A stretch of DNA of 64,000 nucleotides. Source: Candidatus Altimarinota bacterium. Its GTDB lineage: Bacteria > Patescibacteriota > Gracilibacteria > UBA1369 > GCA-2718715. The stretch lies in the NCBI GenBank assembly GCA_041242255.1, contig JBESAV010000001.1:640001-704000 (forward strand), in the 5' to 3' direction. A program made the position numbers and the translations under genes. The notes below the pieces were generated by a model, which made no database searches, had not been told where the DNA came from, and saw only the letters and a program-made list of their open reading frames with translations. This document shows, piece after piece, positions 16,435 through 22,139 of this stretch. Positions within the stretch are counted from its first letter, which is position 1, and every line of letters begins with the position of its first letter.

Positions 16435-18393
16435 CTAAATTCCTTGCAACTTTGTCTTCATAAAAGCAAATATAGGCTTGCGAAAATAAAAAGCTATGCT
16501 TCCTGACAAAAAGTAAATTAAAATATAGACCCAAAAAATATTAAAAGTTTCATCACTCTCAACATCCTTAATAAAACCTAAGGGGACCTTTTGTTCAGTT
16601 TCAATCTTAGCAATTTTCAAAAGCTCACCTTCAAGATACTCATATTCAACTTCATCACCAACCACAAATTCACCTTCAAGATCATCATAGATAAAGTCAG
16701 CCCCAGAAATATTAATAAGCTGATTCACTATGTCTAATTCTTTTATATACCCAATATCATTTTTAATAATAGGATTCGCCTGACTTTTACTTATGTACTT
16801 AGTCCAAGTCCACTCACCAAGGTCAGCATAAGACTGACCTTCAATTGATTTACCATATTCTAATTTCTGGATTACTTTTCCTCCTCCATCAATTATTTCT
16901 ACAGTACCACCAGAATTTGAAAAACCTGTAACCTCAACTACTAAGTAGTCAGATGACTCTACATTCATTCCATCAAGCTTTACGGTTTTATTATTGAGAC
17001 CAATACTCCAACCATTAAGCTCCAAATCACCTTCACCATAGTTATACAGCTCTATCCACTCATTCCCAGAATCTTTTCCCTCAGGATTAGGCAAAATTTC
17101 ACTTATACTAATATCTGAATATTTCATATAATTTTTTTCTGATAAATCCTCATCCTCACTTAATTCTTTTGTATCCTCTTTAATTTCTTCAGAAAGATTA
17201 CTTATTTGCATTTGATAAGTCTGTCCACTTTCTGAATTTTCATACTTTATCTCTTCAACCAGTTCACCATCCTTAAATAATCTTACCGAATCTCCAGAAT
17301 TATTTAGACCAATTCCACTCAAAGAATTATAAATTTCAACTTCTTGACCAGCCTCAAAAAACACCTCACTTAGATCAAACTCAGCACTTTGACCCTCTGA
17401 GTCATCTAACACCCAACCAGCACCATATCCATCAACATCTGAAATATTTCTTAATCTAATCCACTCGTTTCCAGTGTCTGAACCTTCTGGATTCGCAATA
17501 AAGTCAACAATTTTTAGATCCAATATAGCAACATCCTCAAAATCATCATCAACCTCCTCAACTACCTCCTCCTCAGTCACAATTTCATCAGCACTCCCTT
17601 CAGAGGAAGAAATCTCAGGTAGAACAGATACAAATAAATTAGTCGTATCTTTTTTCCCAAGGGAATTCATAACCTGCAATTCAACTACATAATTACCAAC
17701 ATTATCAAAGCTTACAGCAGCAGGATTTTCTTTGTCTGATAATTCACCATTACCAAAATCCCATTTGAATTCTAAATCCAATCCATTCGGATCCAAGCTA
17801 GAGCTCCCATCTAAATTTATAGCCACCTCTCCATACCCCACAGTTTCACCAGTTTGGATTTCAATTTTAGCCTCTGGTTCACTAATGTCATTAATATTTT
17901 TATCTCCTGGAGTATCTTCAACTATAAGTATCCAATCATTTTCAAGATAATTCAGTCTTCCAACGTGCGTTCCATCTTCTATATTTTCTGAATTAAAACA
18001 TTCACCAAGTCCAAAACTCTCAAACGCTTCAACTTCCTCAATCTCATTTTTACTCACCTCTTCAGATTTCCAACAAAAGCCATCAATTAACTCATTTCCA
18101 TAGTAAATCAAAATTTGCTCAGTAGTACTAACAAGATCTTTTTCTATCACATTATATTTATCTAAAGTCTGTCCCTCATAAACATTTTTGCCATCTATTA
18201 TCACGCTTACAAGATTAGCATCAACATCCTCAGGTCTATTAACAAAAAATTCCAAATAATCACCATCATCATAGTCAAAATTAATCTCACTTAAACCTAT
18301 ATAAGTTTTGCTAGGTAGTTCAACACTGCAGGCTAAAGTAAAGCTACTTTGAAAACACATAATCCCGATAAGTCCAATCAAAATTCTCTTCAT
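16435..18393 (-). CDS. surface protein with lamin-tail domains and a PKD domain
   Basis: Signal peptide, PKD (LDGSSSLDPNG...WDFGNG), LTD motifs (ISEILPNPEG.D...EWIELYN; LNNSGDSVRL), C-terminal TM. Confidence 0.85.
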   Translation of the reverse strand: MKRILIGLIGIMCFQSSFTLACSVELPSKTYIGLSEINFDYDDGDYLEFFVNRPEDVDANLVSVIIDGKNVYEGQTLDKYNVIEKDLVSTTEQILIYYGNELIDGFCWKSEEVSKNEIEEVEAFESFGLGECFNSENIEDGTHVGRLNYLENDWILIVEDTPGDKNINDISEPEAKIEIQTGETVGYGEVAINLDGSSSLDPNGLDLEFKWDFGNGELSDKENPAAVSFDNVGNYVVELQVMNSLGKKDTTNLFVSVLPEISSSEGSADEIVTEEEVVEEVDDDFEDVAILDLKIVDFIANPEGSDTGNEWIRLRNISDVDGYGAGWVLDDSEGQSAEFDLSEVFFEAGQEVEIYNSLSGIGLNNSGDSVRLFKDGELVEEIKYENSESGQTYQMQISNLSEEIKEDTKELSEDEDLSEKNYMKYSDISISEILPNPEGKDSGNEWIELYNYGEGDLELNGWSIGLNNKTVKLDGMNVESSDYLVVEVTGFSNSGGTVEIIDGGGKVIQKLEYGKSIEGQSYADLGEWTWTKYISKSQANPIIKNDIGYIKELDIVNQLINISGADFIYDDLEGEFVVGDEVEYEYLEGELLKIAKIETEQKVPLGFIKDVESDETFNIFWVYILIYFLSGSIAFYFRKPIFAFMKTKLQGI

Positions 18394-18459
18394 ATAATAC
18401 TAAAATTAGATACTTATCAAACATACTCAAACCACTTTACCAAAATAAAAAAACCTTAG

Positions 18460-18488
18460 TTGACCATATGTGCAAAACTATTTAAACT
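18460..18488 (+). promoter_or_regulatory. putative sigma70 promoter of the rny-like gene
   Basis: TTGACC 18460-18465, 17 bp, TAAACT 18483-18488. Confidence 0.5.
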
Positions 18489-18582
18489 AAATCTGACCTT
18501 TGTGGAGCGATTGCAACGATTTCTGAAAAAACAAAAATGATACAAACAGCTTCGTAAGGGCGTAGTACCCTAAACCAAAACT

Positions 18583-20100
18583 ATGGAAACTTTATATATG
18601 ATAATCGCGGGTATTGCTGGCTTGATTTTTGGTGGTTTCGTTACTTATAAAATGTTAACAAACAAGCACAAAAGCCTCGCAGCAAAATCTGATGAAATTA
18701 TACAAGACGCAAAGAAAAAAGCTCAGCAACAGATAGCTGAAGCCAAAAAACAACGTGATCAAATGCTCAAAGAAATAAGAAAAAAAGAGCAAGATAAAAG
18801 AAATGATTTAAGAAACAATGAAAGCCGACTCATCAAAAAAGAAAACGAGTTAGAAGAAAAGATTGAACAAATAGACCACAAAAGAGAAAAACTAGAGCAA
18901 GAGCTAAAAACTATCGAATCTCAAAAGAAAGATTTAAACTCAAAAGTTCAAGAGCAGCAAAAAGAACTAGAAAGAATCGCTTCACTAAGTAAAACGGATG
19001 CACAACAAGAATTAATAAAAAAGGTAGAACAAGAATTCAACCCCGATCTAGTTAAGTATGTTAAAGACCTAGAGGAAAAAGCCAAGAAAGAAGCCAATGA
19101 AAAAGCCAAAGCTATCATGGTTTCAGCTATGCAAAAATATGCTGCTGAAACAGCATCTGAAAGCACAGCTACAATAGTACAACTTCCATCTGATGAAATG
19201 AAAGGACGAATCATCGGGCGTGAGGGTCGAAACATCAACACCTTCGAACACATGACCGGAGTTGATGTAATTGTAGACGATACTCCAGGAACAGTTATAA
19301 TTGCCGGTTTTGATTTGATGAGAAGGTATATTGCAAAAGTATCACTAGAAAGGCTAGTAACTGATGGAAGAATCCATCCAGGTCGAATCGAAGAGGTTGT
19401 AGCCAAAGTAGAATCTGAGGTCGAACATCTTGTTAAAGATTTAGGTGAGAAAGCAGCGTACGAAGTAGGTGTTGTAGGTTTACCATCAGATATGATCAGA
19501 CTTCTTGGGAAATTGAAATTCAAAACTTCTTATGGACAGAATCTCCTCAAACAATCTGTAGAGATAGCGAACCTATCAGGAATAATGGCTTCACAAATAG
19601 GAGCTGACGCTTCTTTAGCTAAAAAGGCTGGTTTACTTCATGCTATTGGAAGATCAGTTGATCATGAAGTATCTGGAAACTTCTTCCAAATAGGAGCAGA
19701 TATTTGTAAAAAATATGGTTTATCTGAGAAACTAACAAAAATCATTGAAAACATGCAAGACATGCATGATCAGACTTCAGCAGAGGGAGCTATTGTTGAG
19801 TCTGCTTATCAGATCTCATGTAACAGACCAGGGGTAGATAAAACTAATCTAGAGTCATTTATAAAAAGAATGGAGGAGCTAGAAAACATTGCTAAATCAT
19901 TTGAAGGAGTAACAGGTGCTTACGCTGTTCACACAGGAAACGAAGTCCGAGTAATAGTTGATTCTGAGAAAATTGATGATCTAAAAACTATTAAACTATC
20001 TCATCAGATAGCTAAAAAAATAGAAGAAGACACGCAATTTAGCGGTCTTGTAAAAGTAACAGTACTAAGAGAGCGTAGAATAGAAGCTATCGCAGAATAA
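18583..20100 (+). CDS. rny: RNase Y homolog with degenerate HD domain
   Basis: TM, coiled coil, KH (KGRIIGREGRNI), DGRIHPGRIEE, TSYGQN, RPG and C-terminal domain. HD motif reads HA. Confidence 0.9.
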   Translation: METLYMIIAGIAGLIFGGFVTYKMLTNKHKSLAAKSDEIIQDAKKKAQQQIAEAKKQRDQMLKEIRKKEQDKRNDLRNNESRLIKKENELEEKIEQIDHKREKLEQELKTIESQKKDLNSKVQEQQKELERIASLSKTDAQQELIKKVEQEFNPDLVKYVKDLEEKAKKEANEKAKAIMVSAMQKYAAETASESTATIVQLPSDEMKGRIIGREGRNINTFEHMTGVDVIVDDTPGTVIIAGFDLMRRYIAKVSLERLVTDGRIHPGRIEEVVAKVESEVEHLVKDLGEKAAYEVGVVGLPSDMIRLLGKLKFKTSYGQNLLKQSVEIANLSGIMASQIGADASLAKKAGLLHAIGRSVDHEVSGNFFQIGADICKKYGLSEKLTKIIENMQDMHDQTSAEGAIVESAYQISCNRPGVDKTNLESFIKRMEELENIAKSFEGVTGAYAVHTGNEVRVIVDSEKIDDLKTIKLSHQIAKKIEEDTQFSGLVKVTVLRERRIEAIAE

Positions 20101-20123
20101 CTAAGTTAACAGAATTATATAAA

Positions 20124-20150
20124 TTAGCACTTCAGGTTGAGGAGTGCTAT
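20124..20150 (+). promoter_or_regulatory. CIRCE (HrcA operator) upstream of groES
   Basis: TTAGCACTT-N9-GAGTGCTAT; 2 mismatches to TTAGCACTC-N9-GAGTGCTAA. Confidence 0.9.
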
Positions 20151-20193
20151 TTTTCATGATAATTTTTAGTCATCACAATTTAACATATATGAT

Positions 20194-20490
20194 ATGTCGA
20201 AACTTATACCATTAAGTGACTTCATTGTTGTAAAGCCATCAGGTGGTCAAGAAAAAACAGCATCTGGTATTTATATTCCAGATTCAGCAAGTAAAGAGAA
20301 ACCACAAGAAGGTGAAATTCTTGCAGTTGGACCAGGTCGAAAAAATGAGGACGGTTCAAGACAATCAATGGATCTAGAAGTAGGGGACATAGTTATGTTC
20401 AAAAAATACGCCCCAGATGAATTCAAAAAAGACGGACAAGATTTACTTGTTTTGAGAGAAACCGATGTTATCGCAAAACTACAAAAATAA
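20194..20490 (+). CDS. groES: co-chaperonin GroES
   Basis: PLSD, KTASGIYIPDSA.KEKPQEG...AVGPG. Confidence 0.98.
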   Translation: MSKLIPLSDFIVVKPSGGQEKTASGIYIPDSASKEKPQEGEILAVGPGRKNEDGSRQSMDLEVGDIVMFKKYAPDEFKKDGQDLLVLRETDVIAKLQK

Positions 20491-20504
20491 TCTAACTCTA
20501 ATAA

Positions 20505-22139
<1,635 letters not shown>

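Follow-up and report, generated by a model that had tools for sequence, protein, structure and literature searches.

A selectively retained and probably catalytically dead paralog of RNase Y, with a second, HD-intact paralog in the same Candidatus Altimarinota genome

Introduction

In many bacteria, RNA decay is initiated by the endonuclease RNase Y, which in Bacillus subtilis is modulated by the proteins YlbF and YaaT. How its KH domain, its HD domain, and its dimeric state cooperate is unsettled. Here we describe rny-A, a gene for a full-length RNase Y paralog with a degenerate HD site, which lies on the forward strand of the window, the 64,000-nucleotide stretch of DNA analyzed in this work (positions 640,001 to 704,000 of contig JBESAV010000001.1, Candidatus Altimarinota bacterium). 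We describe it together with rny-B, the second rny of the same genome; A and B denote the two genes and their products throughout. We hold with considerable confidence that A is a selectively retained, catalytically dead RNase Y paralog that stands beside an HD-intact one.

In its overall build, A resembles RNase Y of B. subtilis (Rny/YmdA), which likewise has a transmembrane (TM) helix, the RNase_Y_N coiled coil, a KH domain with a GxxG loop, the HD fold, and the C-terminal domain. Unlike that protein, A has six of the seven HD ligands replaced and is accompanied by a second, site-intact paralog. Pseudoenzyme paralogs of ribonucleases are already known as a kind, and A would be a new case of that kind within RNase Y; we found no literature on an RNase Y pseudo-nuclease or on rny duplication in Patescibacteria/Peregrinibacteria, in a search whose coverage excluded most subscription journals. 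The closest analogy to the A-B pair is RNase J2 with J1, or CPSF100 with CPSF73, where a passage of one preprint proposes that the weakly active or inactive paralog is a specificity factor in a complex (bioRxiv 10.64898/2026.05.27.728192). Like A and B, RNase J1 and J2 of B. subtilis combine a site-intact ribonuclease with a retained paralog of little or no predicted activity in the same genome. However, the J proteins have a metallo-beta-lactamase fold, whereas the present pair has an HD fold; the erosion is reciprocal here, the site-intact B being without the KH GxxG loop; and the A-B complex is here a prediction with weak support.

Two further systems bear on the HD site itself. Bd1817 of Bdellovibrio, an unconventional HD-GYP protein, has Asn in place of the last Asp of the motif, is inactive on its expected substrate, and binds two irons, as described in a passage of PMC8177086. 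The same D-to-N change at the last ligand occurs in the A-type clade, where 50 of 116 copies read HHDHHHN; unlike A, which has lost six ligands, Bd1817 keeps the others, and it belongs to another family with other substrates. PgpH-type phosphodiesterases share the seven-ligand dinuclear motif with RNase Y and are among the weak Foldseek matches (4s1c, E 0.015; 4s1b, E 0.021). Unlike A, PgpH is a cyclic di-AMP phosphodiesterase with a seven-TM receptor module and without KH and RNase_Y_N domains.

Results

A full-length RNase Y that has lost its HD metal site

The rny-A gene and the parts of its product are as follows.

18583..20100, + strand: rny-A, full-length RNase Y paralog with degenerate HD site (open reading frame, TIGR03319, AlphaFold2 model)
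18595..18648, + strand: N-terminal hydrophobic helix YMIIAGIAGLIFGGFVTY, residues ~5-22, presumed membrane anchor (read from the sequence; helical in the AlphaFold2 model)
18592..19149, + strand: RNase_Y_N coiled-coil region, residues 4-189 (PF12072, 112 bits)
19177..19314, + strand: KH domain, residues 199-244 (Pfam KH_1, 28.8 bits)
19216-19227, + strand: GxxG loop of the KH domain, G212-R-E-G215, intact (read in frame)
19510..19842, + strand: HD-fold domain without metal site, residues 310-420 (Pfam HD, 31.1 bits; ligand columns)
19843..20097, + strand: C-terminal alpha/beta domain, residues 421-505 (TIGR03319 coverage to 513/514; strands and helices in the model)

The open reading frame (ORF) starts with ATG, encodes 505 amino acids followed by a stop, and is free of frameshifts and internal stops. 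Against the NCBIfam RNase Y equivalog TIGR03319, A scores 556 bits, above the cut-off of 454.35, and the alignment runs from end to end, with residues 4-504 placed on positions 2-513 of the 514 in the model. In Pfam, the RNase_Y_N match is accompanied by KH_1 (cut-off 21.5) and by a weak HD match, PF01966 (cut-off 22), and A also matches TIGR00277 HDIG with 52.8 bits. The motifs DGRIHP (residues 261-266) and NRPG (residues 414-417) are present. Thus, the statement in a preliminary description of this DNA that the TM helix, coiled coil, KH GREG loop, DGRIHP motif, and C-terminal domain are intact and without frameshift agrees with the ORF, the Pfam and TIGR03319 matches, and direct reading.

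An AlphaFold2 (AF2) model of A, built from a 120-sequence alignment, has a mean predicted local distance difference test score (pLDDT) of 82.1, with block means of 80-92 in the HD region, and draws the coiled coil as a long helix (2-132) plus a second one (137-195). Because this model is confident, the HD fold of A is predicted to be preserved though its ligands are lost. Foldseek searches with the model gave weak domain-level matches to HD proteins (3m1t, 2pq7, 2ogi, PgpH 4s1c, PhnZ, and YqeK) and also to KH proteins. In PDB sequence searches, neither A nor B matched a structure of RNase Y or of an HD protein; the single match was a KH protein (E 0.0087). For B. subtilis RNase Y, a passage of PMC9775385 reports an AlphaFold dimer model in which the C-terminal region contributes to the dimer interface.

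The seven ligand positions were located by aligning the sequences with H..HD..H..HH..D, the motif of dinuclear HD phosphodiesterases, which in PgpH corresponds to H514, H543, D544, H580, H604, H605, and D648 according to the part of PMC8177086 that treats this enzyme. At these positions, where the canonical residues are H, H, D, H, H, H, and D, A carries Q324 (CAA, 19552), H353 (CAT, 19639), A354 (GCT, 19642), F367 (TTC, 19681), M391 (ATG, 19753), Q392 (CAA, 19756), and Y409 (TAT, 19807). Six of the seven ligands are replaced and H353 alone is kept, so that A lacks the metal-ligand set of RNase Y; every codon on which the preliminary description had based its claim of a systematically degraded HD site is in frame and reads as it was said to. 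The substitutions are not a read error, as had also been claimed, because QHAFMQY is found unchanged in 8 of the 120 database homologues closest to A, these 8 being 70-100% identical to it. Nor are the losses a matter of chance, since HHDHHHD is found in 12/12 single-copy outgroups and in every readable B-type copy. A passage of PMC10303841 calls the B. subtilis RNase Y H368A/D369A protein inactive and states that single HD mutations "almost abolish" cleavage. From its sequence we infer that A has lost catalysis: it would be unable to bind two catalytic metal ions and therefore is most likely no nuclease.

A second, HD-intact paralog in the same genome

The source chromosome is a single contig of 1,000,477 bp that is 98.5% complete. 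A TIGR03319 profile search of this genome returned a second rny at C1:232094-233611, with 361 bits, below the cut-off. Its 506-amino-acid ORF is 28% identical to A, retains all seven ligands (HHDHHHD), and matches Pfam HD with 48.3 bits and RNase_Y_N with 40.7 bits. We also looked for a Pfam KH_1 match in B and found none. The AF2 model of B (mean pLDDT 85.9) retains the KH beta-alpha-alpha-beta-beta-alpha topology with block pLDDT of 91-94, and the loop between the first two KH helices reads AGPDS in place of GxxG. Nucleic-acid binding by KH domains is commonly impaired by mutation of GxxG to GDDG (PMC3413153); judged by its loop, the KH domain of B has presumably lost RNA binding. The net charges of the two KH domains (-2 in A, -3 in B) are uninformative. 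This genome therefore has an A with an intact KH domain and a dead HD site, and a B with an intact HD site and a degenerate KH loop. A third TIGR03319 match was rejected as an rny, having 17.6 bits over the coiled-coil part only.

The preliminary description had guessed at an active paralog and had named a second rny, RNase J, and RNase E as genes to look for. The HD-intact B lies on the same contig, with an activity that is predicted from its site, and profile searches of the genome found RNase J (553 bits) and no RNase E/G. The further suggestion of non-standard mRNA decay does not follow, because RNase J and an HD-intact RNase Y-B make up the usual RNase Y/J toolkit. Searches of the genome for the Y-complex proteins YlbF and YaaT/PSP1 found neither.

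A gene for a 223-amino-acid membrane protein with a zinc-metallopeptidase-like HEVGHAIQH motif (locus L002, 759..1430) ends 8 nucleotides before the start of rny-B. Because of this short distance, the two genes may be co-transcribed.

Distribution and reciprocal erosion of the two paralogs

The closest named homologues of A come from metagenome-assembled genomes of Candidatus Peregrinibacteria and Patescibacteria. All 121 genomes sampled from the window's order have a TIGR03319 match, and 114 of them have two or more. Elsewhere in the class, a single match is the rule (67 of 74 genomes), and only seven genomes have two (six of family f37 and one of family f39). We aligned 169 rny ORFs and built a FastTree LG+gamma tree from the 163 with at least 450 residues, dropping six shorter fragments. 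The A clade (112 sequences, support 0.94) and the B clade (39 sequences, support 0.95) are each monophyletic, and both include f37. The backbone that links A, B, and the 12 single-copy outgroups has supports of 0.06-0.54, too low to place the root, to name the "original" copy, or to choose between duplication in the ancestor of the order and transfer as the origin of B. Measured from the A/B node, paths average 0.84 in A and 2.00 in B.

Within the order, 10 genomes have no A above the cut-off. Five of these (G013, G026, G087, G094, and G113) carry A fragments at contig ends, two (G010 and G011) gave weak N-terminal fragments, the gene of one (G085) was read incompletely, and two (G061 and G101, 94% and 81% complete) showed B alone. 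Both paralogs occur in nine of the ten genomes of f1, the window's own family; the tenth (G075, 79% complete) is without B.

The two halves of the protein are eroded in opposite copies. The single-copy outgroups retain both HHDHHHD (12/12) and GxxG (12/12). The full ligand set is present in 0/116 A-type copies, and all 116 have GxxG. Their patterns are HHDHHHN in 50, HHDHHEN in 23, HHDHNEN in 12, and HHDHHDN in 7, with the remainder more eroded. The HD doublet itself is lost in 15 of them (8 in f1, 3 in f19, 2 in f7, and 1 each in f17 and f18), and only 4 of the 116 keep fewer ligands than the single one kept in the window's A. That the last ligand has changed from D to N across nearly the whole A clade suggests that the catalytic role of A began to fade right after the paralogs arose. 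For B we read 46 of the ~110 copies in the order: HHDHHHD is present in 40/40 complete genomic copies and in 6/6 further copies, one more being truncated by a contig end, and GxxG is absent from 25/41 and from 2/6 of the further copies. This 41-copy set includes a 305-residue fragment from genome G063 that was assigned to B by pattern only and excluded from the tree.

The same division is seen among database homologues. The 120 best matches to A include none with the canonical ligand set and 120 with GxxG; all of the 120 best matches to B have HHDHHHD, and 74 lack GxxG. Of the cluster representatives at 50% identity, the 150 that match A best comprise 115 with a canonical HD site and 35 with an eroded one; GxxG is present in 150/150. 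The HD-eroded, KH-intact representatives include P0296, P0368, P0374 (on a 2.05-Mb contig), P0386, and the P0371 cluster, and HE replaces HD in 7 of the 150 (for example P0328, P0362, and P0373). HD-eroded RNase Y homologues are not limited to the order, because one eroded cluster has a member named [quoted passage not shown].

As a separate observation, the G063 fragment (contig C33:1-980, locus L127) lies at a contig end, has canonical KH and HD motifs, and scores 466 bits, which is high for its length. It may be a third copy or contamination.

A single old loss followed by long retention under selection

Within f1, the A copy of G057 reads HHDHHHN and that of G084 reads HHDSVGS, and the eight others, in four genera, are dead. 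Their patterns differ by genus: QHAFMQY; QNSYTYY or QNSYEVY; FKFMQKT; and HMHFQSN, HAFHQSS, or HMFFQAA. In the tree, which holds seven of these eight (the 445-residue fragment of G036 was dropped), the dead copies form one clade with support 0.98, sister to G057 and G084, with terminal paths of at least 0.44 substitutions per site. That dead copies of four genera form such a clade, with long terminal paths, indicates that the ligands were lost once and long ago, after which the freed positions drifted and the protein was retained over a long time.

Several lines of evidence speak for purifying selection on the dead protein. The eight closest dead-clade proteins are all full length and 70-100% identical. 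The Nei-Gojobori ratio dN/dS (omega) is 0.049 for the dead pair G092/G004 (dN 0.070, dS 1.42) and 0.126 for the dead pair G023/G048. Restricted to the HD domain of dead A, omega is 0.07-0.10 where it could be computed, G092/G004 having no HD-specific value. Across the eight dead-clade proteins, the KH domain is the most conserved part, with 90% invariant columns, followed by the HD domain (66%), the linker (61%), the C-terminal domain (59%), and, as the least conserved, the coiled coil (32%). For dead A in genera g3 and g4, identity over the HD domain (72-76%) is no different from that over the whole protein (74-75%). The constraint in B is the opposite, with 94-97% identity over the HD domain against 65-85% over the whole protein. 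The HD domain evolves about 6 times faster in dead A than in B (dN of ~0.20 vs 0.02-0.04).

For differences between strains, we compared contigs from four public runs with the rny-A region. A 29.6-kb contig from a fish gut metagenome (run X6) spans window positions 18403-20500 without gaps and with 137 differences (~93.5% identity); the fish gut sample therefore contains a near relative of the marine bacterium from which the window comes. Of the 39 listed in-gene strain differences, 35 are synonymous and 4 non-synonymous; 292 further differences fall outside the listing. The claim that A is under selection rather than decaying thus gains support from the omega of 0.049, the 35:4 ratio of strain differences, and a conserved, full-length clade. 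With its catalytic residues lost and its gene kept by purifying selection, A would qualify as a pseudoenzyme on sequence grounds.

A predicted A-B complex

We predicted the complex of A(28-505) with B(28-506), giving each its own alignment and using three unrelated proteins as controls. The median score for A-B is 0.60, compared with 0.00 for the best of the three controls; the runs share at least 94% of their contacts, and the partner pLDDT is at least 76. In the calibration of this method, 58 of the 80 solved complexes and 2 of the 110 mismatched pairs attained the mark. Only 7 of the 80 solved complexes scored 0.60 or less, as did both of the mismatches that passed. The prediction therefore weakly supports an A-B heteromer in silico.

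Discussion

In regard to function, the reading that we lean toward is a division of labor on the membrane, in which A is a selectively maintained pseudo-nuclease that forms the RNA-binding and scaffold half and B supplies cleavage. In such a scheme, the membrane-anchored A, being without metal binding, most likely gives no cleavage itself; purifying selection would keep it for RNA binding through its KH domain and also for assembly through its coiled coil and C-terminal domain. Cleavage would come from B, which keeps the seven HD ligands and has here lost the GxxG loop. A and B would probably form a hetero-oligomer on the membrane that follows the plan of the RNase Y homodimer and in which A is an RNA-binding or specificity subunit for B. 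Both the physical association and the direction of the functional split are parts of this scheme that we infer. In a stronger version, which we regard as doubtful, the RNase Y of this order would be an enzyme that always requires both genes: duplication would have been followed by a partition of RNA capture (A) and cleavage (B) within a membrane-bound hetero-oligomer, and the KH domain of A would hand its substrate in trans to the HD domain of B.

A number of observations weigh against this division of labor or against the results that it draws on. The two erosions, whose coupling we checked genome by genome, are not strictly coupled: a dead A stands beside a GxxG-intact B in G109 (f17) and G019 (f19), which means that A is kept even where B looks self-sufficient, and in f9 the A copies are at 6/7 ligands while the B copies are without GxxG. 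A missing GxxG loop is no proof that RNA binding is lost, and the ligand positions of A follow from motif alignment, the PDB copy that we searched having no RNase Y structure. With unrelated proteins as controls, the complex prediction does not distinguish an A-B heteromer from a general tendency of RNase Y to self-associate, and with coiled coils that are 17% identical, heterodimerization of A and B is not a given. As for selection, dS is saturated over the whole gene in 3 of 5 dead-A pairs and is 1.4 in the best pair, and none of the 39 listed in-gene strain differences lies in the HD domain. Evidence of expression is thin, consisting of two contigs (222 and 263 nucleotides) on rny-A in metatranscriptome run X8, which could also stem from DNA carry-over.

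Alternatively, A may be dead and yet independent of B, a membrane-tethered KH RNA-binder that organizes RNase J, PNPase, or a helicase, or that localizes or protects RNAs, while B acts as an independent, specialized nuclease. We consider this unlikely, though several findings fit it. The RNase_Y_N domain, the partner-binding region, is more canonical in A (112 bits) than in B (40.7 bits), the two coiled coils share little sequence, RNase J is at hand in the genome, and dead A persists in G109 and G019 beside a B with an intact loop. Furthermore, because YlbF and YaaT are absent, some other specificity device may be needed. However, an independent A would leave unexplained why B has lost its KH loop, here and in most B copies, and it sits poorly with the near-universal co-occurrence of A and B in the order and with a complex prediction that passed the mark, if weakly, at 0.60 against 0.00 for the controls.

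Two other explanations concern A itself. Its site might have been rebuilt, or be metal-independent, through H353, D360/H361, or the DMHD motif, so that A would still be an enzyme. The confident prediction of the HD fold, the purifying selection on that domain (omega of 0.07-0.10 in the computable pairs), the retention of H353 in the eight closest sequences, and, in the 120-sequence alignment, an invariant D360 and an H361 that is at least 90% conserved could all be taken in that sense. Yet each dead genus carries different residues at the ligand positions, which indicates drift rather than a convergent new site. The other dead genera have M, A, N, or K instead of H353, and their HD domain, like that of dead A in general, evolves much faster than the one in B. 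At H395 of the DMHD motif, which the preliminary description had held out as an alternative site, 6 of 7 close relatives carry K or Q. We therefore think it very improbable that A is still an enzyme. Early pseudogenization under relaxed selection, with A as a decaying duplicate that is redundant with B, was the other outcome that the preliminary description had allowed for. It could account for the vanished catalytic residues and for an HD domain that is relaxed relative to that of B, but it is contradicted by ORFs that are intact in all dead-clade members of the four genera and in the eight close database relatives, by the low omega and the 35:4 excess of synonymous strain differences, and by a KH domain that is 90% invariant. 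The loss is moreover old and single (support 0.98), with long branches since, and A changes more slowly than B (mean path 0.84 vs 2.00). This explanation is scarcely tenable.

This lineage amounts to a natural separation-of-function experiment on RNase Y: strong constraint acts on the RNA-binding and scaffold parts of A, and catalysis would be left to B. It raises the questions of whether the KH domain feeds the HD domain in cis or in trans, what the role of the non-catalytic part of RNase Y is, and how specificity is achieved where the Y-complex is absent, as it is here. Were the two-gene version true, the RNase Y dimer would work in trans in general, and the many HD-eroded, KH-intact homologues found in metagenomes would amount to a widespread class of specificity subunits for RNA decay that has yet to be described.

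Annotation and genomic neighborhood

The names given to the two paralogs in databases run counter to their predicted activities. A-type copies, which score above the equivalog threshold, are named "ribonuclease Y", though in none of them is the HD site complete. Because the scores of the HD-intact B-type copies fall below this cut-off, NCBI lists them as "DUF3552 domain-containing protein" or "Rnase Y domain-containing protein".

The surroundings of rny-A in the window contain the following features.

20124-20150, + strand: inverted repeat TTAGCACTT-N9-GAGTGCTAT, terminator-like, upstream of groES and groEL
20194..20490, + strand: groES, downstream of rny-A
20508..22139, + strand: groEL, downstream of rny-A
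16435..18393, - strand: 652-amino-acid ORF divergent from rny-A, with an N-terminal hydrophobic segment, acidic linkers, and repeated NPEG.DSGNEWIEL.N-type modules

A promoter scan near rny-A was at chance level, with 5 found against 6.2 expected. The inverted repeat resembles a CIRCE/HrcA operator before groES-groEL, and it may also terminate rny-A. "GGSKPY"-motif proteins like the product of the 652-amino-acid ORF, and GroEL ORFs, adjoin rny-A in other genomes of the order; though noted incidentally, this suggests conserved synteny around rny-A-groESL.

Outside the order, the single rny genes of G141, G148, G153, G160, G164, G184, G193, and others (families f29, f40, and f42) carry 1-33 in-frame TGA codons, which fits the UGA-recoded lineages of the class; the window's order, by contrast, reads TGA as stop.

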